Below the pieces are notes generated by a model. It was not told the origin of the DNA, did not search any database, and was given only the letters and a program-made list of their open reading frames with translations. This document shows positions 11,738 to 57,742 of a DNA stretch of 64,000 nucleotides, in pieces. Source of the stretch: an uncultured Phascolarctobacterium sp. (lineage in GTDB: Bacteria > Bacillota > Negativicutes > Acidaminococcales > Acidaminococcaceae); the NCBI GenBank assembly GCA_900541915.1, contig UQLS01000003.1, positions 104,196 to 168,195 on the forward strand, given 5' to 3'. Each line of letters begins with the position of its first letter. Positions within the stretch are counted from its first letter, which is position 1. A program made the position numbers and the translations under genes.

Positions 11738-11740
11738 ACA

Positions 11741-11778
11741 AAAAGCTCTTCTGACATCAGTCAGAAGAGCTTTTCTTA
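11741..11778. terminator. Bidirectional terminator
   Basis: AGCTCTTCTGA...TCAGAAGAGCT stem with flanking A- and T-runs. Confidence 0.8.
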
Positions 11779-13269
11779 TTTATTCTCGTTTAACAAGGCA
11801 GCAAAATCTTTATTCAGTTTATTCTCTGCCTCCTGCTGACGTTTAACAGCCGCTTCTGTCCAGGCCTTATTACGCTGCAGCTCTTTATCACACTGCTGCA
11901 GCATTTTAGCCATTTCTGCCGGCTGCGGTCCTCCCTTAACCGCTCTGGCAGCCACAATAGCCGCAGGATCAAGAGCTGCTTTAAATTCAGCTCTAGTCAG
12001 AGGCAGCATCGCCGGCAAGCTTTTATCCTTAGCCGCCAGCTGCAGATATATCTTCTGTGCCTCTTCGTAAGAAAAATCTGAAGGCGGGATATTATTCTTA
12101 CGGGCATAAGTTACTATTTCAGAAGCAAAGTGATGTCCAGTTCGGAAAGGAATCTGATATTTACGCATCATCAAATCGGCAATTTCCTGTGAACAGGTCC
12201 AGTCCAGATTAAGTTCTGCCAGGCTGCGCTCAGGATCAATAACCAAAGCCTGTAAAATATGATCAAAATCACGCACAAGCTTAGCTGCATCCTTCAATAA
12301 TGTTTCCGCCCCGGTCCTGCCATCCGGCATGCCAGCCGGAATATTATGAGCTCTGAACAATACCGTTGTTCCATCTCCCAACAGCATGGAAGCATCTCTT
12401 CTTGCATTATTTAAAATACCAGGATTACGTTTTTGCGGCATGGCACTGGAAACATAAGTGTTGCCGCCGCCCTCACGCAAAATTATCCATGGACGCGGCT
12501 GCGCATATTGCTGCATAATTTCTTCAATAAAACTGCCGATATGCAGCGCGATATTATTTGTTACCGCAGCTGCATCCGCCGCATTTTCAGAAGTATAAAT
12601 CTGTCCAGCATCGTAAGTATTATAGGCAATACTGTCAAAGCCCAGATAACCTGCTATTCTATCCCTGTCAAGCGGCCAGCCGGTGCCGTTCAGTACTGTA
12701 GCTCCCATCGGCGAACGATTAAGTCTGCCATAATATTGCTGTAATCTTTGCGCATCACGCCCAAATGCATACGCATAGCCGAGCAGATAATGTCCCAGGC
12801 TGTTAGGCTGTGCTGCCACACCATTGGTATAGTTGGGAATAATAGTCGCTTGCTGCTGAGCAGCAAGTTTCAATAAAGTTGTCTGCATATCGTCCAGCGC
12901 TGCCGCAAGCTCCAGAGCCTGCTCGCGGCTCATGGCAAAATTCACTGTGCTCAGCATATCCTGACTGGAACGTCCTGCATGCAGCATGGTAATTTCTTCG
13001 CTGCCATAAGTCTTAATCAGCAAGGGTTCAAAAGTAATTACCAAATTAGGGCGTGCACCGCCATTATCTCCGTCCTGCAAAACCTGTGCAATACTTTTGG
13101 CAAAGCCTTGCCCCTGTTCTTTAGTCAGCAGACCTTGCTGCGTATTTATAACTGCTGTAGCCTTATTAATCTGTCCCAGCCAGTAAAAGTTGTCTTTTTC
13201 TGCTGCTTCTGCAGTCACAGCATTCATTGCCAACATTGCCAGAAATGCCAATATTCCAAACTTTTTCAT
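11776..13269 (-). CDS. Secreted lyase class I (fumarase/argininosuccinate-lyase superfamily) protein with a signal peptide and a C-terminal coiled-coil tail
   Basis: Motifs GRSSQD, PNYTNGVAAQP and SSAMPQKRNP align to the ArgH motifs GRSRND, PGYTHLQRAQP and SSLMPQKKNP. Signal peptide MKKFGILAFLAMLAMNAVTAEA. Its ATG overlaps the stop of the upstream SBP gene (TAATG). Confidence 0.8.
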   Translation of the reverse strand: MKKFGILAFLAMLAMNAVTAEAAEKDNFYWLGQINKATAVINTQQGLLTKEQGQGFAKSIAQVLQDGDNGGARPNLVITFEPLLIKTYGSEEITMLHAGRSSQDMLSTVNFAMSREQALELAAALDDMQTTLLKLAAQQQATIIPNYTNGVAAQPNSLGHYLLGYAYAFGRDAQRLQQYYGRLNRSPMGATVLNGTGWPLDRDRIAGYLGFDSIAYNTYDAGQIYTSENAADAAAVTNNIALHIGSFIEEIMQQYAQPRPWIILREGGGNTYVSSAMPQKRNPGILNNARRDASMLLGDGTTVLFRAHNIPAGMPDGRTGAETLLKDAAKLVRDFDHILQALVIDPERSLAELNLDWTCSQEIADLMMRKYQIPFRTGHHFASEIVTYARKNNIPPSDFSYEEAQKIYLQLAAKDKSLPAMLPLTRAEFKAALDPAAIVAARAVKGGPQPAEMAKMLQQCDKELQRNKAWTEAAVKRQQEAENKLNKDFAALLNENK

Positions 13270-14282
13270 TAGCCAGCCTCCTCTGCACCTGCACTTAGCC
13301 ACTGCCTGATAATTTCATTTTTCTCTATTGCTGTCCAGCTTAAATCATCAACCGGTACCCGTACATTTCCTAAAAGCTCTTTCCGCAGATTATTATGCGG
13401 ATAATCCTTTACATGCCATAAATACTGGTAGCCATTATTATTCAGCACCTGCAGGCTGTCATCACTCATTAAATAATCTATAAAGCGGCAAGCCTCCTGC
13501 TGCTGTTTGCTGCCGTTAATAACTGCAGCACCGGTGAGCAGATTTCTGTTAGCATCTTCTACTACAGTAGCAAACAGGTGATTATAACGCTCTTCCAATT
13601 TTAATGCATAGCGCAGCGGCAAAACCGCTACAGTCTTGCGGCCCGTATAAACCATATCCACCGCATCACTGATATGGTCGGTATATGTAACCTGCTGCTT
13701 ATTAAGCTCAGCAGCATATTGCAGCGCCTGCTGACGTCCGCGCAGCTGCCAGATAGAAGTTAACAGTCCGTAGCTTGCACCGCCATAGATATAATCAGGA
13801 ATAACTATTTCACCGCGCAGCTGCGGCTTTAAAAGCTCTGTGCAGGTATCAGGTGCATACAATCCCAGTTCATGCAGTCTGTCCTTATTGCTGATAAAAG
13901 CAACGTATTCAAGATACAAACTGGTCCAGTATCCCTCTTTGCTGCGCATAGCTGCCGGTACTTTATAAGCTTCCTTAGTAAGATACGGCTGCAGTAAATT
14001 TTGCTGGCTGGCAAGATAATATTCTTCCACAGTACCGCCAAGCCAACAATCTACATTATTCTTTCTTATAAACTCTATACGTTCGTTAAAGGAACCGGCA
14101 GGCAAACGTATTATCTTAACCTTAATACCCGTCTTATTTGTAAAATCATCTGCTAAAACAGCAGTAGCCTTACTTTCCATACTGCTGCAGACAGTTATCT
14201 CTGCTTTCTGCTTCTGCTGCTGTTGGCAGCCGGAAAGCAATAAGCTCATAAGCAGGATTACTGCTATAAAAACTCTGTGCAT
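13269..14282 (-). CDS. ABC-type periplasmic solute-binding lipoprotein (PBP2 fold, Fe3+/thiamine/polyamine-like)
   Basis: Lipobox LLSGC. RBS AAGGTGG before ATG at 14282. No cognate permease or ATPase genes are adjacent. Confidence 0.75.
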   Translation of the reverse strand: MHRVFIAVILLMSLLLSGCQQQQKQKAEITVCSSMESKATAVLADDFTNKTGIKVKIIRLPAGSFNERIEFIRKNNVDCWLGGTVEEYYLASQQNLLQPYLTKEAYKVPAAMRSKEGYWTSLYLEYVAFISNKDRLHELGLYAPDTCTELLKPQLRGEIVIPDYIYGGASYGLLTSIWQLRGRQQALQYAAELNKQQVTYTDHISDAVDMVYTGRKTVAVLPLRYALKLEERYNHLFATVVEDANRNLLTGAAVINGSKQQQEACRFIDYLMSDDSLQVLNNNGYQYLWHVKDYPHNNLRKELLGNVRVPVDDLSWTAIEKNEIIRQWLSAGAEEAG

Positions 14283-14341
14283 CTTCTTCCACCTTTCTGC
14301 TTTCATTATAGCATATTAAGATGCAACTGCTTGCTGCAACA

Positions 14342-14689
14342 TTATTCGCATAAAGGATTAGTCAGTTCAAATCTGTCATCCATATGCTCACTGCCCCAGC
14401 TGCACATCATTTCCAATAACGGCTCCAGGCTTTTACCCTTTTCCGTTAAGTAGTATTCTACTTTGGGAGGTACCTGAGCATATACTTTACGTTCAATAAG
14501 TCCGTCTGCTTCCAGCTCACGCAGCTGATTAGTCAAGGTACGCTGAGAAACTGTCCCTATTTCACGCTGCAGCTCATTAAATCTTTTTCCCGGTGCAGCT
14601 AAAAGAGAGGCAAGCAGCAAAGGCTTATATTTTCCGCCAATAAGCTTAATGGTTACTTCCATTTCGCAGATTACCTTAATTTTCTCCAT
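14342..14689 (-). CDS. HxlR-family winged-helix transcriptional regulator
   Basis: HxlR-type HTH (...RFNELQREIGTVSQRTLTNQLRELEADGLIER). Confidence 0.8.
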   Translation of the reverse strand: MEKIKVICEMEVTIKLIGGKYKPLLLASLLAAPGKRFNELQREIGTVSQRTLTNQLRELEADGLIERKVYAQVPPKVEYYLTEKGKSLEPLLEMMCSWGSEHMDDRFELTNPLCE

Positions 14690-14826: not shown

Positions 14827-15549
14827 ATGCTTAAAGAATTAGTAGTTATTACAGGCGCCAGCTCCGGTATCGGCAGTCAATTAGCCCGTCGTTTTTCCGC
14901 AGCCGGACATCCTTTGCTTTTGCTGGCAAGAAGACTGAAGCCTATGAAGGAACTCAATTTGCCTAACAGTATCTGCATTTCTGCAGATGTTACCAATCCT
15001 GAAGCTGTAACGAATGCTATCCGCCAGGCGGAAGCAGAATACGGCAAAACAGACTTACTCATCAACTGTGCCGGAGTTATGCTTTTAGGACATCCTGACC
15101 GCCAGCTGTATACTGAATGGGAGCAGATGATTGACGTCAACATCAAAGGCATCCTCACTAGTACGCAGGCTGTACTGCCGGACATGCTGGAACGCAATCA
15201 TGGCACGATTATCAATATCAGCTCCATAGCGGGACGCAAAACCTTTGATAATCATGCTGTTTACTGCGGCACTAAATTTGCTGTACATGCTATTACAGAA
15301 AATATGCGCAAAGAAATTGCCGATAAAAACGTACGTCTTATTGTACTGGCTCCCGGCGTAGTGGAAACACCGCTTTTAAGCCATACCAGCGATGAAGGAA
15401 TAAAAAGCGATTACAATCAGTGGAAAGAAACCATTAACGGCGGACTTGATGCTGATAAAATTGCCGATTGTGCTCTTTTTGCTTACCAAATGCCGCAGGA
15501 AGTCTGCATACGTGAAATCGTTATTGCCAAAACTAAACAGGCAGATTAA
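14827..15549 (+). CDS. SDR-family short-chain dehydrogenase/reductase
   Basis: TGASSGIG cofactor motif and a YxxxK catalytic dyad. It is divergent from the HxlR gene. Confidence 0.85.
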   Translation: MLKELVVITGASSGIGSQLARRFSAAGHPLLLLARRLKPMKELNLPNSICISADVTNPEAVTNAIRQAEAEYGKTDLLINCAGVMLLGHPDRQLYTEWEQMIDVNIKGILTSTQAVLPDMLERNHGTIINISSIAGRKTFDNHAVYCGTKFAVHAITENMRKEIADKNVRLIVLAPGVVETPLLSHTSDEGIKSDYNQWKETINGGLDADKIADCALFAYQMPQEVCIREIVIAKTKQAD

Positions 15550-15592
15550 AAAAATCCGTCAAGATATTTTAATATCTTGACGGATTTTTTAT
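15549..15592. terminator. Bidirectional terminator
   Basis: 18-bp stem AAAATCCGTCAAGATATT / AATATCTTGACGGATTTT. Confidence 0.85.
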
Positions 15593-15598
15593 TAATCA

Positions 15599-16645
15599 TT
15601 AATCACGGTCAAAAACCATAACCTGTTCAAAGTCCAGATATACGGTATCTCCATCTTTGAATTTATGCAGATCAGCGCCTTTTTCAATAACGCGTACGTT
15701 ATGGTCTCCCACCTGAATACGATAATCAACAGCGTCACCCAGATAGAAACGATGGGTAAGTACACCTTTAATCAGACCGCCGCTCAGAGACATAGTGATA
15801 TTTTCCGGACGAACGGCAATAATTGCATCGCCGCTGACATTAGCAGAGTTAGCAAAGGAAATGTCCGTACCTTTAATAAATACACGATCACCTTTAGCTT
15901 CACCGTCCATGAAGTTAACCAGACCGATAAAGTCTGCTACCATCTTATTAGCCGGAGTAGTATAAATTTCATGGGGAGCACCAATCTGCTGTACAACGCC
16001 TTTGCTCATAACCACGACACGGTCGCTCATTGCCATGGCTTCGCTCTGGTCATGGGTTACATAGACAACGGTAATACCAAGCTTTTTCTGAATGGACAGA
16101 ATTTCAAAACGCATGCTTTCACGCAGCTTAGCATCCAGGTTAGACAAAGGTTCGTCAAGCAAGAGCAGTCCAGGCTGAGCTACCAGCGCACGTGCCAATG
16201 CAACACGCTGCTGCTGACCGCCGGAAAGCTGATGCGGATAACGTTTGCCATATTCACCCAAATGCACCAGTTCCAACATTTCCTGCACACGCTGCATTCT
16301 TTCTTCTTTGGGAACTTTCTGGATTTTCAGCGGATAGGCTACGTTTTCTTCTACTGTCATATGCGGCCATACTGCATAGGATTGGAATACCATGCCGATA
16401 TCGCGTTTTTCCGGCGGAGTGAAGCTGCCTTTGATGGAAGAGCTTACACAGGCATCACCAATATAGATTTCACCTTCCGTTGCACGTTCAAAGCCGGCAA
16501 TCATACGCAGAGTAGTAGTCTTGCCGCAGCCGGAAGGACCAAGGATGGAAACAAATTCACCATCTTTTACAACCAGGTGAAAATCATTAACAGCAGTTAC
16601 TTTGCCAAATCTTTTATAAACATGTTCAATACGTACTTCAGACAT
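15599..16645 (-). CDS. ABC transporter ATP-binding protein (FbpC/PotA-like)
   Basis: Walker A GPSGCGKTT and LSGGQQQR signature. A C-terminal TOBE-like domain is present. Confidence 0.9.
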   Translation of the reverse strand: MSEVRIEHVYKRFGKVTAVNDFHLVVKDGEFVSILGPSGCGKTTTLRMIAGFERATEGEIYIGDACVSSSIKGSFTPPEKRDIGMVFQSYAVWPHMTVEENVAYPLKIQKVPKEERMQRVQEMLELVHLGEYGKRYPHQLSGGQQQRVALARALVAQPGLLLLDEPLSNLDAKLRESMRFEILSIQKKLGITVVYVTHDQSEAMAMSDRVVVMSKGVVQQIGAPHEIYTTPANKMVADFIGLVNFMDGEAKGDRVFIKGTDISFANSANVSGDAIIAVRPENITMSLSGGLIKGVLTHRFYLGDAVDYRIQVGDHNVRVIEKGADLHKFKDGDTVYLDFEQVMVFDRD

Positions 16646-16661
16646 TGATTACACTCCTTCG

Positions 16662-18329
16662 TTAAATACCAACATTACCCTTACTCAGTTTATTAAGAAT
16701 CAGATTGCCAATCAATACGATAGCCAAAATAATTACCGACAGTACGGAAGCATTCTGAGTATCAGCATAGGTCTGCAGTTCATACAGCAATACACCGATA
16801 GTCTTGGTATCACTGCCGTACAGAAGCAATGACATGGTCAGTTCGTAGAAAGACGGCATAAAAATCAGGAACCAGCCGGCAATAATTGACGGAGCAATAA
16901 GCGGCATAATAATGTCCTTGCAGCATCTCAGCCAGTTAGCACCAGAATTAAGCGCCGCTTCTTCCAGGGAAATATGAACCTGACTCAGAGAAGCAGCAAT
17001 GGTACGTACGGACATAGTCATATATTTTACCAGATAGCTGACTACCAGTATCCACATAGTTGAATACAGGTTCAGACCGAAGTTGCCGGAGAAAGTAACA
17101 ACCAATGCCAGAGCAATAACGATACTAGGAGTACTGCCGCCGATAACAGTCAGCAGGTCAGGAATGCTGCGTCCTTTAACATGAGTCTTAACCGCCAGAT
17201 ACGCAACGAACAGAGAAAGCAAAGTACCGATAGTAGCAGCAATAACTGCATAAATAACGGAGTTCCAAATGCTTTCCATGTACTGAGAGCTGCTGATAAC
17301 AGGAATCCAGGCATCAAAACCCAGGTTGGAAAGAGTAATCGGTTTAGACATACTCTTAATCAGAGAGGTAATGACGATAGAGCCTAAAGGAATAATTACA
17401 GAAATCATGCTGTAAGCACCTACGGCGCAGAAAGCAGGCCATTTCCATTTTCCCAGCTCAACAATATTAGGACGAGTGCTCTTGCCGCTGATAGTAGTAT
17501 AGTCCTTACGTCCTACAATCCAGGTCATGAAGAACAGCAGGAAGTTTGCTAAGAACATCAGAGATGCAGCCAAAGCAGTAGCATCGCGGACACCATCAAC
17601 GTCACCCATGTAAATATAAGTTACGATACGGGTAGTCATAACTTCTATGTTACCAGGCATACCAACGATAGCAGGAATACCGAAGCAGCTGCCTGCGGCA
17701 ATAAATACCAGGAGTCCACCGGCAAAAATACTGGGAGCCATCAAAGGCAGGGTAACATCAAGCAGAGTGCGCAGCGGTGAAGCACCGGAAACTCTGGCAG
17801 CTTCCTCCAAAGTCGGGTCCATTTTCTCCATTGCGCGGGAAATAGTGATAAACGCAAAGGGAGAATAAAATAATGTTAATACCCATGCTAAGCCGCCAGT
17901 AGTATAAATATCAAAAGGAGCCTGCTGCAAGCCAAACATCCACTTGAAAATATTGTTCATATAGCCAACACTGGGATTAAGCAGCTGTACCCACGCAATA
18001 GCACCTACATAGGGCGGAATCATATAGCTGGAAACCAAAAGGGTACGATAAGCCTTCTTGCCGGGCATATCAGTACGGCCAACCAGCCAGGCCAGCGGGA
18101 ATGTAATAATAACGCTGGCAACCATAACCAACAAAGACAGATTGATAGTATTGGTCAAAGCACGCCAGTTAACATCCTGACTGTATACGTTACGATAGTT
18201 TTCAAAATTGATGCTGCCATTATAGATAATGCTGTCATAAAGCAGCACACCCATCGGGAATATTACAAAATATATCAGCATCAATACAGAAAACGCAATG
18301 ACTAAGAATTTGCTGTTAATTCTTCCCAT
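16662..18329 (-). CDS. Fused two-domain ABC permease (FbpB/ThiP-like)
   Basis: 555 aa with about 12 TM segments and two permease repeats. Confidence 0.85.
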   Translation of the reverse strand: MGRINSKFLVIAFSVLMLIYFVIFPMGVLLYDSIIYNGSINFENYRNVYSQDVNWRALTNTINLSLLVMVASVIITFPLAWLVGRTDMPGKKAYRTLLVSSYMIPPYVGAIAWVQLLNPSVGYMNNIFKWMFGLQQAPFDIYTTGGLAWVLTLFYSPFAFITISRAMEKMDPTLEEAARVSGASPLRTLLDVTLPLMAPSIFAGGLLVFIAAGSCFGIPAIVGMPGNIEVMTTRIVTYIYMGDVDGVRDATALAASLMFLANFLLFFMTWIVGRKDYTTISGKSTRPNIVELGKWKWPAFCAVGAYSMISVIIPLGSIVITSLIKSMSKPITLSNLGFDAWIPVISSSQYMESIWNSVIYAVIAATIGTLLSLFVAYLAVKTHVKGRSIPDLLTVIGGSTPSIVIALALVVTFSGNFGLNLYSTMWILVVSYLVKYMTMSVRTIAASLSQVHISLEEAALNSGANWLRCCKDIIMPLIAPSIIAGWFLIFMPSFYELTMSLLLYGSDTKTIGVLLYELQTYADTQNASVLSVIILAIVLIGNLILNKLSKGNVGI

Positions 18330-18379
18330 AAAGTAAAAAATACTCCTTTCTGCATATAAAAACCGGAGAAAAATAGATA

Positions 18380-18420
18380 CTTTTATAACGCAGGAAAAAC
18401 AGGGAACGTATAAACGCCCC
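18380..18420 (-). promoter_or_regulatory. Intergenic hairpin plus T-run between the SBP and permease genes, a possible partial terminator or attenuator
   Basis: On the minus strand, CAGGGGCG...TTCCCTG is followed by TTTTT. Confidence 0.35.
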
Positions 18421-18462
18421 TGTTTTTCGCCATACTACCTAATTTTTATAATTTTCGGCAGC

Positions 18463-19506
18463 TTATTCCATAACTCTCTTACGGAATTCTTCCTTGATTT
18501 CAGCATTGTTGTCAGCAAGTTTCTTCCAGTCAACCTTGATTGCGCCTTCTACCAGTTTCTTGGTTTCAGGAGCACCTTTCGGAGCCGGTACATCTCCGCG
18601 AACAGAGTGCATCCAGCCTTTAACAACTGCTTCCTGACCTTCTTTGGACAGCCACCAGTCAACCAGTGCCTTAGCACCTTCCGGATTCTTAGTGGTGTTG
18701 AAAATAGCAATCGGAGACGGAACCATTACTACGCCGTCTTCAGGATAGGATACTTTCAAAGGCTCGTTCTTGGTATTAGCAAGTTTCAGAATATTTTCTT
18801 CCAAAATCATAGCTGCAGCATATTCGCCGGTCAACAGTTTATTTTGGATAGCAGAGTTGCCTTCTTCAACACGGATACCGTTTGCTTTCAGTTTATCAAA
18901 GTATTCCCAGCCATATTTGTCAGCCAATGCACCTACTGCAACATAAGCAGTACCGGACAGCATCGGGTTAGGCATAGCAATTTTGCCTTTCCATTTCGGG
19001 TCGGTCAGATCTTCCCAGGTTTTCGGAGCATCTTCCGGTTTCAGTTTATCGGAATTGTAGGCAATGATCATGTTGCTGATACGTACTGCAGTCCATGCGC
19101 CTTCTTTATCTTTTTCACTGATAACATTTTTAGCTTCCGGAGAAACATACGGAAGCAGTAATTTCTGTTCGTCAAGTTTCAGATAATAGGAAGGATCTGC
19201 TACCATCAATGCATCAGCAGCAATTTTTTTAGCTTTAATTTCACCGGTAATCTTAGTGATAACTTTTTCAGTACCGCCCTGGAACCAGTTTACTTTCATA
19301 TCGGGGAAAGCTTTGGCAACATTAGGTTTGCACATATTGTCGATAATATCCGGATAAATAGAGGTATAAACCATTACTTCACCGGACAAACCGCCTTTGC
19401 CGCTATCAGCTTTTTTGTCGTCACCGCCGCAACCTGCAACTGCTACGGACAAAGCTAATAAAGCGGCAGCACCTAACATCCATTTAGATTTTTTCATTGT
19501 TAACAC
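18463..19506 (-). CDS. ABC transporter periplasmic substrate-binding lipoprotein (Fe3+/thiamine family)
   Basis: Lipobox VAGCGG. 347 aa SBP family 1 protein. It is the first gene of the SBP-permease-ATPase operon. Confidence 0.85.
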   Translation of the reverse strand: MLTMKKSKWMLGAAALLALSVAVAGCGGDDKKADSGKGGLSGEVMVYTSIYPDIIDNMCKPNVAKAFPDMKVNWFQGGTEKVITKITGEIKAKKIAADALMVADPSYYLKLDEQKLLLPYVSPEAKNVISEKDKEGAWTAVRISNMIIAYNSDKLKPEDAPKTWEDLTDPKWKGKIAMPNPMLSGTAYVAVGALADKYGWEYFDKLKANGIRVEEGNSAIQNKLLTGEYAAAMILEENILKLANTKNEPLKVSYPEDGVVMVPSPIAIFNTTKNPEGAKALVDWWLSKEGQEAVVKGWMHSVRGDVPAPKGAPETKKLVEGAIKVDWKKLADNNAEIKEEFRKRVME

Positions 19507-19718: not shown

Positions 19719-20792
19719 CTAGATAGCAGCAAAAAAATTTAATTCCCAGGCAGGTATATAAGGATGCTTACGCAGATATACTTTATACTCAGGCACAATC
19801 TGCCATAACAGCAGCGGCAACAAAAAGATATCCGCATCATAATGGTAAGCAGCTGCCAAAATCTTGGGGCGGTACTTAGAAATAACTGCTCTGCCGCCAT
19901 TCAGCGCTTCTTTTTCTGCCCCTTCTACATCCATCTTAATATATGTTACCGGGTCATCGCCGCAGATATTATCAATAGTATCGACCGGTATAATATTTTT
20001 CTGTCCTGCCATTAGTGTTGACTGTCTGCCGCCGCTGTCAGAAAAGCCTTTTTCTTCACTCTGAGACCAGATTCCCTTCTGGCAGGTAACAAAATTGTCC
20101 CGCAAGGTTTCATGTAATTTTTCCAGCTTCTTAAAATTACGTCTGTCAGGCTCTACCGCAACAATTTTACGATAACTTCCGTCAGTAAGCTCCAAAAATT
20201 CCTGTACAGTATCGCCGTTATAAGCTCCCAAATCAAGATATATCTCCTGCTTGCCCCAGGCAAACAATTCCTTAAGGTCTGCTTTTCTGTCTGTTTCACA
20301 GGCCAGCAGATATCTTATATCGCCGCTCAATTTATAGTTTAAGGCAGCAGCAAATACTTCACGTGACTTTTCATCTGCTAATCTGTCGTACACATACTGC
20401 AGCTGCTGTTCATATTTTTCCAGCCACTGACAGCTTACTGTTTCTTCCTCTGCAAAAAGAGCTAAATGCGGCGCCAGTACCTCGTGCTTCTCGGCAAGCT
20501 CTTTAAACTTTGCCAGTACCTCCGGAATCTCGCTGGCAAAGGCAATCACTATCAGAACATCTTCGCCAAATCGTTCTATAATATTCTGATAACTGCATAC
20601 AGTAAAGCCTCTGAATTGCTGATAACGAACAAAACCATCACTGGCAAAAATTCCGCTTATTTTTACTCCGTTTTTTTCGCACCAGTCCAGTATTTTATCA
20701 GCACCATTGCCCATACCATATAAAATAATAGGCTTACGTGCTGCCAGCAGTTTACTCCAGACATCGCTTTTTTCCTTAATAAAATTCAGCAT
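19719..20792 (-). CDS. FkbM-family SAM-dependent methyltransferase with an N-terminal auxiliary domain
   Basis: FkbM motifs DLGAYNGDT ... VEPD ... IKMDVEGAE. RBS GGAGG before ATG at 20792. Confidence 0.7.
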   Translation of the reverse strand: MLNFIKEKSDVWSKLLAARKPIILYGMGNGADKILDWCEKNGVKISGIFASDGFVRYQQFRGFTVCSYQNIIERFGEDVLIVIAFASEIPEVLAKFKELAEKHEVLAPHLALFAEEETVSCQWLEKYEQQLQYVYDRLADEKSREVFAAALNYKLSGDIRYLLACETDRKADLKELFAWGKQEIYLDLGAYNGDTVQEFLELTDGSYRKIVAVEPDRRNFKKLEKLHETLRDNFVTCQKGIWSQSEEKGFSDSGGRQSTLMAGQKNIIPVDTIDNICGDDPVTYIKMDVEGAEKEALNGGRAVISKYRPKILAAAYHYDADIFLLPLLLWQIVPEYKVYLRKHPYIPAWELNFFAAI

Positions 20793-20911
20793 AATAACCT
20801 CCGCTTCTTCCATTTCATTATACACTATCACTGCCTATCGCTGATACTGCTTTATCAATCTCTTTTCTTATGCTAAAATATAATTACAACAATTTGTACG
20901 GAGGTCTTATC

Positions 20912-21274
20912 ATGCCCTTGCTAGAATCCGGTGAAAACTATCTGGAAACAATACTTATTCTTAAACAACGTAACGGCAATGTCCGTTCTATTGATATCGC
21001 TACAGAAATGAATTTTACCAAAGCCAGCGTCAGCCGTGCCATGAGTATTTTAAAACGTGATAACTATATCACTATGGAAGCTGACGGCAGAATTAACCTT
21101 ACCGAAGCAGGCATGCAGAAAGCTTCCTCTGTGCTCGACAGACATGTTACATTAACCCGTTTTATCAACGAATACCTTAAAGTTCCCAAGGAAATTGCTG
21201 AAAAAGATGCCTGTCGCATTGAACATATTATCAGCCCTGAAACCTTTAACGGTATAAAAAATCTATTAAAATAA
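20912..21274 (+). CDS. DtxR/MntR-family metal-dependent transcriptional regulator (short form)
   Basis: N-terminus ENYLETILIL ... SIDIATEMNFTKASVSRAMSIL. RBS GGAGGT 6 nt before ATG at 20912. Confidence 0.8.
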   Translation: MPLLESGENYLETILILKQRNGNVRSIDIATEMNFTKASVSRAMSILKRDNYITMEADGRINLTEAGMQKASSVLDRHVTLTRFINEYLKVPKEIAEKDACRIEHIISPETFNGIKNLLK

Positions 21275-21298
21275 AATTACGAAAGAGGTGTATGCTAA

Positions 21299-21960
21299 TG
21301 AAAAAATTAATTCTTATGGTAATCTGTTTATTATCATTATGCGCATTTACTATTACCGCGAATGCTTCTCCTAGTCACTGGGTACATCCAGAATATGATT
21401 TAACACAAATTACCACTATTAATGTTACACATTTTGAAAATAACACCCAATCATCTGGTAATTACACTGTTGAAAAAAATGCTCAGCAAAATATTATGTC
21501 AGCACTTTATGCTGCTGCCTCAAAACAAAATCTTTTAATTACTGAAAATGTAAATATTGAACAAAATACTGCTGATAATAGTCAAACTTCCTATTTAAAA
21601 AAAACACGTAATACTCCAAAAACTGTTAATTTGCAAATTACAGTCAACAAACTTGGATATTCTTCCACTGTGATTCCAGCACATTTTGACAATCAAGTCG
21701 ATTATGTAAAAACTAAAGTCAAAGATAGTCACGGAAATTATAACGAAGTCAGCGTCCCAGTCACTCATCAAGTATATATACCAGAAACAACATATTATAC
21801 TGCTCATGTAGAAATCATTTATAATCTTTATGATCCTGCAAATGATACAATGATTTTCACCAGCCGTGATTCTAGGGAACGTGGCGGAACTTACGATACT
21901 ACTGGCATGCTGGAGCGCTCCACTAAAGACTTACTGAAAAACATCAAAAAAGGCAAATAA
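21299..21960 (+). CDS. Secreted hypothetical protein rich in Asn/Thr/Gln; the gene is AT-rich
   Basis: Signal peptide ending ANA-SP. GC is clearly below its surroundings. I recognise no domain. Confidence 0.55.
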
Positions 21961-21968
21961 ACTATTTT

Positions 21969-21997
21969 ACAGCTCTGCTAAAGCAGAGCTGTTTTTA
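21969..21997 (+). terminator. Rho-independent terminator
   Basis: CAGCTCTGC-taaa-GCAGAGCTG stem followed by TTTTTA. Confidence 0.8.
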
Positions 21998-22074
21998 TAT
22001 GCTCTTTTTCATTATTAAAATCTATTATCATCTTTATTGACTTATCAATAAAAAATGTTATAATTTTAATATCT

Positions 22075-22245
22075 AAAGCTGAATACGAAGCAGGTTCTTT
22101 TTAGAATATCAAGTCCTTTGCGACGCGGTCCCGCCGCCAACGGCTTACAGCCGGCCTGCATAACCATATTTACCGTTGATCTACGAGCGATAGGGAGGAA
22201 AGTACAGAAATATTTTTCCCTTGCTGAATCGGCAAGGTTTTTTTA
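22075..22245 (+). promoter_or_regulatory. GC-rich structured 5' leader ending in an intrinsic terminator; candidate riboswitch or attenuator in front of the periplasmic CbiK gene
   Basis: About 170 nt of GC-rich leader between AT-rich promoter sequence and the RBS. The nested helices GCCG-ccaa-CGGC and CAACGG...CCGTTG are visible. The terminator CCTTGC-tgaatcg-GCAAGG plus TTTTTTT lies 45 nt before the ATG. Confidence 0.35.
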
Positions 22246-22290
22246 TTCCTCTGATTTGTATTCAGCCAATAAAAAAGGAGTGTTTATACT

Positions 22291-23289
22291 ATGAAATCCA
22301 GTATGAAGAAATTAGCCGTAATGACCTTTACCTGCGCAGCTTTGCTTGGTACTATCCCCGCAGCAGAAGCAGCTTACAGCCTCAGTGAAGAAGTTAAAGC
22401 TCCTACCCCTGCCTTGCTGCAGGCTACTCAAATCGGTGTACGTACCCACGAAACTGCCGCTCTGCAGCAGCTCCCCAACAAAGATGCCATCCTGGTAATG
22501 AGCTTTGGCACTACCTTTAAAGACACCCGCGAAAAAACTATCGACGCTACTGTTAAAGCTATCCAGGCAAAGCATCCTGATACCAAGGTTATGGTTGCCT
22601 TCACCTCTCACATCATTATCGACCGCATTAAAGCTAATGAGGGCATTGAATATCCTACCCCTGAACAGGCTTTAGAGCAGCTGAAAAAAGAAGGTTATAC
22701 CCGTGTGGCTCTGACTTCTCTGGATATCATTCCCGGCATGGAATATGCCTATAAAGAAGCAGTATATAATCTGCACAAAAACGACTTTAAGAAAATGACT
22801 ATAGGTACTCCGCTGATGTACTGGCAAGGCCAGGAAGGTCAGGATGACGATATTACCGCAACCATGCAGGCACTGTCTACTCAATTCCCGAAACTGGGCA
22901 AAAAAGACGGCGTACTGATTATGGCACACGGCACTCCGCATCCGGCAAATGCTTATTACGCAGTAATGCAGGACCGTCTGAATGAGCTCGGTTATGATAA
23001 TGTCTTCATCTATTCCGTAGAAGGCTGGCCGCATCTGGAAACCGTTATTCCGCAGCTGAAAGCTAAGAAAATTAAAAACCTTACCATCATGCCGCTGATG
23101 ATGGTTGCAGGTGACCACGCTAACAACGATATGGCAGGCAGTGAAGAAGATTCTCATAAATCCATCCTGGAAAAAGAAGGCTTTAAAGTAACTCCTTACA
23201 TCCACGGTTTGGGTGAAAATCCTGCTATTCAGAAATTATTTGTTGATAAAGCGGAACAATCCTGGGAAGCTTTGCAAAATAGCAAATAA
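22291..23289 (+). CDS. cbiK: Periplasmic CbiK-family (class II) chelatase paralogue with a signal peptide
   Basis: Strong similarity to anaerobic cobaltochelatase CbiK: FTSHIIIDRI...PLMMVAGDHANNDM...HGLGENPAIQKLF. It carries an N-terminal signal peptide plus a roughly 60-aa extension. Confidence 0.85.
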   Translation: MKSSMKKLAVMTFTCAALLGTIPAAEAAYSLSEEVKAPTPALLQATQIGVRTHETAALQQLPNKDAILVMSFGTTFKDTREKTIDATVKAIQAKHPDTKVMVAFTSHIIIDRIKANEGIEYPTPEQALEQLKKEGYTRVALTSLDIIPGMEYAYKEAVYNLHKNDFKKMTIGTPLMYWQGQEGQDDDITATMQALSTQFPKLGKKDGVLIMAHGTPHPANAYYAVMQDRLNELGYDNVFIYSVEGWPHLETVIPQLKAKKIKNLTIMPLMMVAGDHANNDMAGSEEDSHKSILEKEGFKVTPYIHGLGENPAIQKLFVDKAEQSWEALQNSK

Positions 23290-23299
23290 AAAATATGTC

Positions 23300-23330
23300 A
23301 AAATCCCTGCCATAAGGCAGGGATTTTTTA
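23300..23330 (+). terminator. Rho-independent terminator
   Basis: AAATCCCTGCC-ataag-GGCAGGGATTT stem followed by a T-run. Confidence 0.8.
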
Positions 23331-23379
23331 AACTGCAGTCATATATTACTTTTAAATCTTATAATTACGAGGTCTTAGT

Positions 23380-24192
23380 ATGCAAAACACTTCTGCTTTC
23401 CTTACTCTCAGCTTCGGCTCTACATTTGCCGAATCACGTCAAAAAGATATCGGCGGCATTGAACAGACCCTACAGGAAGCTTTTCCCAACTACCATCATT
23501 GCCGCGCCTACACCTCTGCCATAGTGCGTCGTCATTTGGCGAAAGAAAATATTTTCGTTGATGATCCGGAAACTGCTTTACAGAAACTGCTGGAAGCAGG
23601 TTTCCGCCATATTCTGCTGCAGCCTACACACTTACTGCACGGCGAAGAATTTGAACAAAAAATTCTGACATTAAAGGATAAATTCGCAGCCTCCTTTGAT
23701 TCCTTTATTATTAGTACGCCGTTAATAACTGTAGATGAAGACTATCCTTTAGTTGCGGCTGCTATCGCTGCTCAATTTCCGCAGCTTGCTCCCTCGGAAG
23801 GTATTATCCTCATGGGTCACGGTACTCCCCGCCGTAACAACAAAGCTTTTGGTCAGACCTATGTACGTCTGCAGAAAAACTTTGACTCCATGAATCTGCC
23901 GGTCCTCGTAGGTACAGTCGAGGATGAGGACAGCCCTAATTTTGATGCTGTCCTCCAGCAGCTGCAGCAGCGTAAATATACAAAAGTACACATGTATCCG
24001 CTGATGGTTGTTGCCGGTGACCATGCTGCCAATGATATGTACGGCGATGATGCAGACAGCTGGAAAACACGTATTGAACAACTTGGCATAGCAACCTGCG
24101 GTCATCTGTATGGACTTGGCCGTAATAAAGCTATCCAGGCACTCTATGTTCAACATGCTTTAAAAGCATTACTTTTCAACAAAAACCAATAA
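23380..24192 (+). CDS. cbiK: Cytoplasmic sirohydrochlorin cobaltochelatase/ferrochelatase CbiK
   Basis: Full CbiK fold over 270 aa: LSFGSTFAES...HGTP...PLMVVAGDHAANDM...YGLGRNKAIQALYV. No signal peptide. Confidence 0.85.
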   Translation: MQNTSAFLTLSFGSTFAESRQKDIGGIEQTLQEAFPNYHHCRAYTSAIVRRHLAKENIFVDDPETALQKLLEAGFRHILLQPTHLLHGEEFEQKILTLKDKFAASFDSFIISTPLITVDEDYPLVAAAIAAQFPQLAPSEGIILMGHGTPRRNNKAFGQTYVRLQKNFDSMNLPVLVGTVEDEDSPNFDAVLQQLQQRKYTKVHMYPLMVVAGDHAANDMYGDDADSWKTRIEQLGIATCGHLYGLGRNKAIQALYVQHALKALLFNKNQ

Positions 24193-57321: not shown

Positions 57322-57397
57322 GGCCCATTAGCTCAGTTGGTAGAGCACCTGACTCTTAATCAGGGTGTCGTAGGTTCGAGGCCTACATGGGTCACCA
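57322..57397 (+). tRNA. tRNA-Lys (anticodon CTT)
   Basis: Cloverleaf folded by hand. Anticodon loop cTCTTAAt. Encoded CCA. Confidence 0.85.
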
Positions 57398-57402
57398 ATC
57401 AT

Positions 57403-57477
57403 GGCCGGTTGGTCAAGCGGTTAAGACACCGCCCTTTCACGGCGGTATCGGGGGTTCGATTCCCCCACCGGTCACCA
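57403..57477 (+). tRNA. tRNA-Glu (anticodon TTC)
   Basis: Anticodon loop CTTTCAC. T-arm GGGGGTTCGATTCCCCC. Encoded CCA. Confidence 0.85.
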
Positions 57478-57483
57478 TAATAC

Positions 57484-57559
57484 GGGCGCTTAGCTCAGCT
57501 GGGAGAGCGTCTGCCTTACAAGCAGAATGTCAGCGGTTCGATCCCGTTAGCGCCCACCA
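57484..57559 (+). tRNA. tRNA-Val (anticodon TAC)
   Basis: Anticodon loop CTTACAA. Acceptor GGGCGCT/AGCGCCC. Encoded CCA. Confidence 0.85.
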
Positions 57560-57585
57560 CTTTTTCCATGTATCCTCTAAATAAT

Positions 57586-57662
57586 GGCCCGGTGGTTCAG
57601 TTGGTTAGAATGCCGCCCTGTCACGGCGGAGGTCGTGGGTTCGAGTCCCATCCGGGTCGCCA
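57586..57662 (+). tRNA. tRNA-Asp (anticodon GTC)
   Basis: Anticodon loop CTGTCAC. Encoded CCA. Confidence 0.85.
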
Positions 57663-57666
57663 TTAT

Positions 57667-57742
57667 GCCTCGGTAGCTCAGTTGGTAGAGCAAAGGACTG
57701 AAAATCCTTGTGTCCACAGTTCGATTCTGTGCTGAGGCACCA
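57667..57742 (+). tRNA. tRNA-Phe (anticodon GAA)
   Basis: Anticodon loop CTGAAAA. Encoded CCA. Confidence 0.85.

Follow-up and report, generated by a model that had tools for sequence, protein, structure and literature searches.

A predicted periplasmic lyase of the EDDS-lyase branch, encoded behind the second binding protein of an importer locus in Phascolarctobacterium

To our knowledge, all the characterised members of the aspartase/fumarase superfamily, among them argininosuccinate lyase (ASL, ArgH), are cytoplasmic. Here we describe a homologue that would be exported. Its gene lies in a stretch of 64,000 nucleotides, called the window throughout this text, from an uncultured Phascolarctobacterium sp. 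(GenBank assembly GCA_900541915.1, contig UQLS01000003.1, positions 104,196 to 168,195), directly behind the gene of a lipoprotein solute-binding protein (SBP) which is named SBP2 here. The original prediction for this pair had proposed a periplasmic binding or processing module, or a pseudo-enzyme, rather than a function in arginine biosynthesis.

The closest described enzyme is the EDDS lyase of Chelativorans sp. BNC1, whose structures (6G3D-6G3I and 6RX8/6RXA) were deposited under the name "argininosuccinate lyase" (PMC6973171). A second reference is XcbC, the phosphosulfolactate phosphate-lyase of coenzyme M synthesis, which demonstrates that an ASL-like enzyme can eliminate phosphate (PMC9457059). 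As judged by sequence and predicted fold, the lyase of the window is a member of the EDDS-lyase branch of the superfamily and not an ArgH; it is probably catalytically competent, with a specificity of its own, and it is very probably exported. The role that we prefer, as a tentative proposal, is that of a competent periplasmic lyase recruited behind the second SBP of an AfuABC-like importer and linked to uptake.

Family placement and active site

The gene under study is the following:

11776..13269, minus strand: predicted exported EDDS-lyase-like/ArgH-like lyase, 497 aa, stop codon included in the coordinates, Pfam domains Lyase_1 and ASL_C2

The open reading frame (ORF), which runs from 13269 to 11776 on the minus strand, encodes a product of 497 aa with the N-terminus MKKFGILAFLAMLAMNAVTAEA. 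The protein matched Lyase_1 with 93.2 bits against a cutoff of 27 (2.6e-26) and ASL_C2 with 43.4 bits against 27.3. The NCBIfam equivalog model for argH (TIGR00838) gave 190.9 bits, under its cutoff of 279.5, and the XcbC model (NF052535) gave 180.7 bits over the full length, under its cutoff of 575. The best sequence matches in the PDB were the EDDS lyase structures mentioned above (E 7e-41, query residues 28-483 against 40-484 of 508). The AlphaFold monomer model (pLDDT 87, pTM 0.87) showed the all-helical three-domain fold of the superfamily, with Foldseek TM scores of 0.74-0.85 to ArgH and EDDS lyase. In this search EDDS lyase 6G3I came first (TM 0.85, rmsd 2.4 A, 473 columns), followed by ArgH and the delta-crystallins (TM 0.74-0.77). 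The model also contains a confident C-terminal helix of 45 residues. This helix had been described in the original prediction as an appended coiled-coil tail of about 40 aa, but it is not an addition, since the alignment with EDDS lyase extends to residue 484 of 508 and covers the same part of the fold.

An identity as ArgH was rejected in view of the equivalog score below the cutoff, the T-N loop, the GRSSQD motif, the signal peptide and the absence of arg genes nearby; no canonical argH was found within the 64-kb window. The original prediction was thus right to doubt a role in arginine biosynthesis, and the database name "argininosuccinate lyase" for the exported family is almost certainly wrong.

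The active site was mapped by alignment to the EDDS lyase numbering, which reproduced every residue type named in the literature, with residue roles taken from PMC6973171 and PMC7586795. The correspondences, with the EDDS lyase residue given first, were:

Ser280 (catalytic base): Ser274, kept
Ser281: Ser275, kept
Ser111: Ser101, kept
Thr158: Thr148, kept
Lys286: Lys280, kept
Asn288: Asn282, kept
Arg112 (beta-carboxylate pocket): Ser102, changed, with Ser invariant in the close family
Asn113: Gln103, changed
Gln159 (His in ArgH): Asn149, changed
Asp290 (amine pocket): Gly284, changed

The region that corresponds to Tyr320, another residue of the amine pocket, does not align in the window lyase.

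Conservation was counted over 120 cluster representatives (58-98% identity) and 80 genome loci of Negativicutes and Alpha-/Betaproteobacteria (51-98% identity). The SS-loop SSAMPQKRNP, at residues 274-283, agrees with the superfamily signature GSSxMPxKxN; it was found as SSAMPQKRNPG in 80/80 genome loci, and its Ser-Ser, Lys and Asn were invariant in these and in the 120/120 representatives. GRSSQD and YTNGV.AQP were each present in 79 of the 80 loci. The original prediction had considered both SSAMPQKRNP and GRSSQD as retained superfamily motifs. This holds for the former, whereas the latter reads GRSRND in ArgH and EDDS lyase, with changes of Arg to Ser and of Asn to Gln. It had also proposed the loss of a near-invariant His, and the alignment with E. 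coli ArgH (PNYTNGVAAQP in the window lyase, PGYTHLQRAQP in ArgH) confirms the change of His to Asn; in the pair Thr148-Asn149, the Asn is invariant in the exported family.

These two substitutions, His to Asn in the T-H loop and Arg to Ser in GRSRND, would favour a pseudo-enzyme in which the lyase fold is retained just for binding a periplasmic ligand or partner, and delta-1 crystallin, an inactive ASL homologue, offers a precedent for it. However, the catalytic Ser274/Ser275, Lys280 and Asn282 do not vary, nor do Ser101 and Thr148, the active EDDS lyase also lacks the His (it has Gln there), and Asn149 is invariant, therefore selected and not decayed. With active-site signatures so nearly invariant, we regard this explanation as very unlikely, and a catalytically competent exported lyase with its own specificity is the probable one. 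The changed carboxylate pocket (Arg112 to Ser and Asn113 to Gln), together with the change of Asp290 to Gly, suggests a substrate unlike argininosuccinate and EDDS.

Probable export of the lyase and distribution of its clade

The N-terminus of the lyase carries the following feature:

13204..13269, minus strand: Sec-type signal peptide (MKKFGILAFLAMLAMNAVTAEA, residues 1-22) with a cleavage site predicted behind AEA

The signal peptide was called by inspection and with a hydropathy script. The n, h and c regions read MKK, FGILAFLAMLAM and NAVTAEA, the last one with an AXA site, and in the AF2 model residues 1-21 form an N-terminal helix of low pLDDT. The same layout was observed in 110 of the 120 cluster representatives, in agreement with the Sec signal peptide of the original prediction, and the other 10 look like truncated gene calls. 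It was also present in essentially all of about 80 genome loci from Negativicutes, Alpha- and Betaproteobacteria and one metagenome-assembled genome of Holophagaceae, most of which lack a twin-arginine motif. The pattern is conserved although the sequences are very different, and the mature lyase always starts just before an invariant (R/K)D.F(Y/F)WLG. The lyase is very probably exported, because its signal peptide is conserved across homologues in its physico-chemical character and not in its sequence.

That members of the superfamily are, as a rule, cytoplasmic would speak for a mis-called start, in which case the product would be a cytoplasmic paralogue of ArgH. The true downstream start that the original prediction had considered could not be found: there is none outside the hydrophobic core. 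Furthermore, an AGGAGG precedes the ATG at a distance of 7 nt, the N-terminus is hydrophobic in nearly all homologues across phyla, and the part homologous to EDDS lyase and ArgH does not start before about residue 28. Such a mis-called start is hardly credible.

Homologues with 58-98% identity were found in Phascolarctobacterium, Dialister, Schwartzia and other Acidaminococcaceae/Selenomonadales, and those with 51-56% identity in Bordetella, Achromobacter, Comamonas, Herbaspirillum, Caballeronia, Cupriavidus, Roseomonas, Bosea, Phyllobacterium and others. By its motifs GRSSQD, YTNGVAAQP and SSAMPQKRNPG, this predicted exported clade is sharply defined, and it comprises Negativicutes and many Alpha- and Betaproteobacteria. 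More distant exported relatives (30-45% identity) carry GRSRQD and YT[H/N]GVQAQP. Exported fusions of about 880 aa were also found (P0152, P0157, P0161 and P0180), in which the lyase is joined to a signal peptide and an M14 carboxypeptidase/AstE-AspA-like domain. Two distant exported lyases are encoded directly upstream of genes for TonB-dependent receptors. The loci concerned are L093:7001-12823 and L095:1144-3793: in one case a gene for a TonB-dependent receptor of 1021 aa lies 109 bp downstream of a fusion of about 880 aa, and in the other a CarboxypepD_reg+Plug protein is encoded 50 bp downstream of an exported lyase with 39% identity.

Literature searches for functional work on ArgH-like proteins that are exported or Tat-dependent, on C-N lyases of the periplasm and on lyases of metallophores returned a single result, a proteomics listing. 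The exported-lyase family is present in Achromobacter genomes, and the periplasmic fraction of Achromobacter xylosoxidans contained three predicted-exported proteins named "argininosuccinate lyase", which are tied to the exported clade by name only (PMC11533796).

The SBP2-lyase unit and the importer locus

The features of the unit formed by SBP2 and the lyase are:

13269..14282, minus strand: SBP2, lipoprotein of the AfuA/P5PA/Fe3+ cluster; 337 aa when counted from its likely start, longest ORF to 14306
13267..13271, minus strand: stop/start overlap TAATG between SBP2 and the lyase, with one base common to TAA and ATG
13277..13282, minus strand: Shine-Dalgarno sequence AGGAGG of the lyase, within the 3' end of SBP2
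14305..14313, minus strand: extended -10 box TGCTATAAT of the SBP2 promoter, conserved in the window and in the relatives L001, L087 and L088
11740..11775, both strands: bidirectional intrinsic terminator, 16-bp stem, T tract on each strand

The TAATG overlap of the original prediction was seen at 13271-13267. A TAATG or TGATG overlap is also kept in L001, L087 and L088, each of which has an internal GGAGG at the equivalent site. Since both the overlap and the internal Shine-Dalgarno sequence are conserved in four lineages (the window and three relatives), with a divergence of the lyase down to 81% identity, co-expression of the lyase with SBP2 is supported. According to these signals, SBP2 and the lyase form a bicistronic unit, predicted to be translationally coupled, with its own promoter and terminator; the terminator at 11740-11775 closes both this unit and a convergent ArsR gene. 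The most likely start of SBP2 is the second ATG, at 14282 (MHRVF...), because it has an AGGTG ribosome-binding site, gives a length that fits the orthologues (336-338 aa), and avoids the ATG at 14306, which overlaps the conserved TGCTATAAT box. The gene of an HxlR-family regulator ends 35 bp upstream of the longest SBP2 ORF, so the distance given in the original prediction is true for that ORF.

SBP2 had been considered an SBP without permease or ATPase genes. The analysis of the neighborhood showed otherwise, and the importer genes are:

18463..19506, minus strand: SBP1, lipoprotein of the same cluster as SBP2, which keeps the S-G-T motif of AfuA/P5PA
16662..18329, minus strand: fused two-domain ATP-binding cassette (ABC) permease, 555 aa
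15599..16645, minus strand: ABC ATPase with a TOBE domain
15548..15590, no strand assigned: terminator behind the ABC ATPase gene (AAAAAATCCGTCAAGATATT..TATCTTGACGGATTTTTTT), also kept in relatives
14827..15549, plus strand: short-chain dehydrogenase, divergent from HxlR and the other gene of a two-gene insertion
14342..14689, minus strand: HxlR-family regulator, part of the insertion, absent from L001, L087, L088 and L091

The SBP1-permease-ATPase genes lie on the same strand as the SBP2-lyase unit, 1.3 kb upstream, and directly abut SBP2 in relatives. In three of these, with lyases 91, 83 and 81% identical to that of the window, an uninterrupted methyltransferase-SBP1-permease-ATPase-SBP2-lyase order was found. 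In the relatives the gap between ATPase and SBP2 contains the terminator, then the conserved extended -10 box and a ribosome-binding site, all of which the window keeps.

In the window, the insertion of the HxlR and dehydrogenase genes falls precisely between the terminator of the ATPase and the promoter of SBP2. An identical HxlR protein occurs on 288 contigs, which indicates that the insertion is common in this species. HxlR as the ancestral regulator of the pair was rejected, as both genes belong to an insertion that is missing from the relatives. Read-through from the strong HxlR promoter (14806-14778) into SBP2 and the lyase is possible, because no terminator intervenes.

Regarding the binding proteins, SBP2 has the lipobox LLSGC (TSGC, ATGC, TAGC and AVGC in orthologues) and matches Pfam SBP_bac_11/6/1/8, as expected from the lipoprotein of the original prediction, and it shares 25% identity with SBP1. 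Its best sequence match to a structure was P5PA (6WCE, E 3.8e-22), and its top Foldseek matches were 6WCE (P5PA), 4R73 (AfuA) and 8X1A (VcA0625), with TM scores of 0.73-0.76. By sequence and fold, both SBP1 and SBP2 are nearer to P5PA, which binds pyridoxal phosphate (PLP), and to AfuA and VcA0625, which bind sugar phosphates, than to true ferric-binding proteins; the matches of SBP2 to Fe3+ SBPs of the FbpA type were weaker than those to P5PA/AfuA in both respects. At the phosphate-binding S-G-T site SBP1 keeps SGT, and SBP2 reads GGAS at the aligned place. An Rfam scan of the window and seven related loci revealed no riboswitch near the lyase that would name the ligand.

The affinity of both SBPs to structures that bind PLP or sugar phosphates bears on another possibility, that the chemistry is not of the C-N type and that phosphate or another leaving group is eliminated from an organophosphate, as XcbC does with phosphosulfolactate. 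The XcbC precedent, the altered carboxylate pocket and the near equality of the XcbC and argH full-length scores point in the same direction. Nevertheless, the XcbC score is far under the cutoff and no xcb genes were found near the lyase in the window, and we judge this chemistry quite unlikely.

Some other aspects of the region should be mentioned. The start of SBP1 is probably the ATG at 19497 (MKKSKWMLG, with an AAGGAG ribosome-binding site) and not the GTG at 19506. SBP1, permease and ATPase (window 15599-19506) are 95-99.5% identical between the window and L001, L087 and L088, and the flanking FkbM-type methyltransferase, SBP2 and lyase are only 67-91% identical; this excess of identity suggests either very strong constraint or a recent exchange of the transporter genes. 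The FkbM-family (Methyltransf_21) methyltransferase, at 19719-20831, is the first gene of the ABC operon in all close relatives and an unusual partner for an importer. Divergent from this operon, and syntenic in relatives, is a group (window 20870-24192) encoding a DtxR-family regulator, then an exported protein of 222 aa that matches no Pfam family, and two CbiK proteins, of which the first carries a Sec signal peptide and the second does not. Five tRNA genes are clustered on the plus strand at 57322-57739 of the window.

Possible roles and comparison with known systems

In the preferred, tentative reading, the lyase would be exported unfolded through Sec and cleaved after AEA, and the usual tetramer of the superfamily would presumably assemble outside the cytoplasm. 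Ser274 would then start a beta-elimination in the periplasm on an anionic conjugate, a succinyl-type or otherwise beta-substituted carboxylate, and SBP2 with the neighboring ABC importer would handle the substrate or one of the products.

The history of the locus allows this reading to be weighed. SBP2 orthologues (53-63% identity) occur in other Acidaminococcaceae in three arrangements, none of them with the lyase: DtxR | methyltransferase-SBP1-permease-ATPase-SBP2 followed by the ArsR and ThiW genes of the window; SBP1-permease-ATPase-SBP2; and SBP2 alone. Dialister, Schwartzia and another Phascolarctobacterium in turn have the lyase as a stand-alone gene, and the neighbors of the lyase vary over about 70 proteobacterial loci. 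The few proteobacterial adjacencies to ABC or TonB-dependent receptor genes are not clearly above chance, and SBP2 and the lyase may have come together recently and by chance, without a pathway in common. In addition, Arg112, one of the three enediolate-stabilising residues of EDDS lyase, is Ser in the window lyase, and the chemistry could have changed. All these points weigh against the preferred reading.

Neighbor clustering over 86 loci gave no conserved partner of the lyase, in a rough analysis where the simple ORF picker took antisense ORFs in high-GC loci. LysR, Bug/TctC binding proteins, GntR, major facilitator superfamily transporters and TonB receptors were found near lyases in these loci at frequencies that fit their abundance in those genomes. 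The pair, for which the original prediction had suggested a search in related Negativicutes, was found in L001, L087 and L088; it was not found in the Acidaminococcaceae with the three arrangements above or in the loci of Dialister and Schwartzia. Other juxtapositions were a rabbit-gut Phascolarctobacterium (L010), where 2.4 kb separate the lyase from an SBP2 orthologue, and Allopusillimonas, where lyase, SBP, permease and ATPase genes follow one another on one strand. In Allopusillimonas, a gene for a protein-glutamine gamma-glutamyltransferase (TGL) comes next after this cluster (L084:15555-16703).

The pair does not behave as an ancient module, as might have been thought. Because SBP2 loci exist that lack the lyase, and most lyase genes have no SBP with them, a lineage-specific recruitment is indicated: the ancestral state would be a transporter locus with two binding proteins, behind the second of which the lyase was added in the lineage of the window. 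This addition seems to be more than noise, since the coupling is kept in four lineages and L010, Allopusillimonas and the TonB-receptor cases, few in number and not clearly above chance, add to it.

An active exported lyase whose position behind SBP2 is incidental, and which would serve, apart from the importer, to scavenge fumarate or other C4-dicarboxylates out of conjugates, or for envelope housekeeping, in organisms living on organic and amino acids, is a possible alternative, short of probable. It would explain the stand-alone lyases of Dialister, Schwartzia and other Phascolarctobacterium, the 51-56% identity and invariant motifs kept across phyla without a conserved neighbor, and the SBP2 that occupies the same ABC locus without the lyase. 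Also in its favor, the hosts (Phascolarctobacterium, Dialister, Schwartzia, Bordetella, Achromobacter and Comamonas) are for the most part asaccharolytic and use organic acids. On the other hand, the overlap with a Shine-Dalgarno sequence inside SBP2 is kept down to 81% lyase identity, and separate juxtapositions with SBP/ABC genes or TonB-dependent receptors are found in other lineages.

Periplasmic siderophore esterases (PfeE, Cee and IroE) work together with TonB receptors and ABC importers. A comparable arrangement, parallel to the periplasmic esterases of enterobactin, would be the cleavage of a metallophore, in which an aminopolycarboxylate chelator (EDDS-, AEAA- or aspergillomarasmine-like) is split in the periplasm and the metal or a fragment enters through an Fe3+-type ABC transporter. 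That the closest characterised enzyme degrades the chelator EDDS, that the transporter falls in a cluster annotated as Fe3+ uptake, that genes for a DtxR-family regulator and an exported CbiK lie divergently upstream, and that TonB-dependent receptors adjoin distant exported lyases are consistent with it. Against it, the window lyase retains neither Asp290 nor Tyr320, which bind EDDS, nor Arg112, in structure SBP2 resembles FbpA less than it does P5PA and AfuA, which bind organophosphates, and no TonB-dependent receptor stands beside the pair in the window. We consider metallophore cleavage unlikely.

In a broader and rather doubtful proposal, the exported lyases would be a widespread periplasmic clade of the superfamily and the first known case of beta-elimination outside the cytoplasm, processing a chelator or nutrient conjugate after its capture by TonB receptors or SBPs and before its import by an ABC transporter. 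Between gut Negativicutes at one end and Bordetella, Achromobacter and Comamonas at the other, the active-site signatures hardly vary. The identity of the substrate would correct the common misannotation as argininosuccinate lyase, and would reveal a periplasmic reaction common to abundant gut commensals and opportunistic pathogens. The family may also offer a C-N lyase scaffold that differs by nature, with Gly at the position of Asp290, which has been engineered in EDDS lyase for biocatalysis.

Finally, the locus can be compared with the known systems. The siderophore esterases resemble it, by analogy only, in the periplasmic cleavage of a conjugate before inner-membrane uptake, and they differ in being hydrolases of an unrelated fold and not beta-elimination lyases. 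The importer shares with AfuABC, P5PAB and FbpABC the architecture of SBPs, fused permease and TOBE-ATPase, whereas the identity is about 22%, the locus of the window has two SBPs, both of them lipoproteins, and in SBP2 GGAS replaces the phosphate-binding S-G-T of AfuA and P5PA. XcbC is also ASL-like, with about 495 aa, and its full-length profile match is similar in strength to that of argH; however, the score of 180.7 bits compares with a cutoff of 575, XcbC is cytoplasmic, and the lyase has no xcb neighbors. ArgH and the delta-crystallins belong to the same superfamily, with the Lyase_1 and ASL_C2 pair and the same SS-loop signature. Unlike ArgH, the window lyase has T-N for T-H and GRSSQD for GRSRND, an equivalog score that is too low, a predicted export, an extra C-terminal helix and no context of arginine biosynthesis. 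EDDS lyase differs in its cytoplasmic location, in sharing only about 25% identity, in the residues Arg112, Asn113 and Asp290 (Ser, Gln and Gly in the window lyase) and in the region of Tyr320. Nevertheless, it gives the best match in both sequence and fold, it falls in the same length class with the long C-terminal helix, it also lacks the His of ArgH (Gln159, Asn149 in the window lyase), and the equivalents of its Ser-Ser loop, Lys, Asn, Ser111 and Thr158 are all kept.

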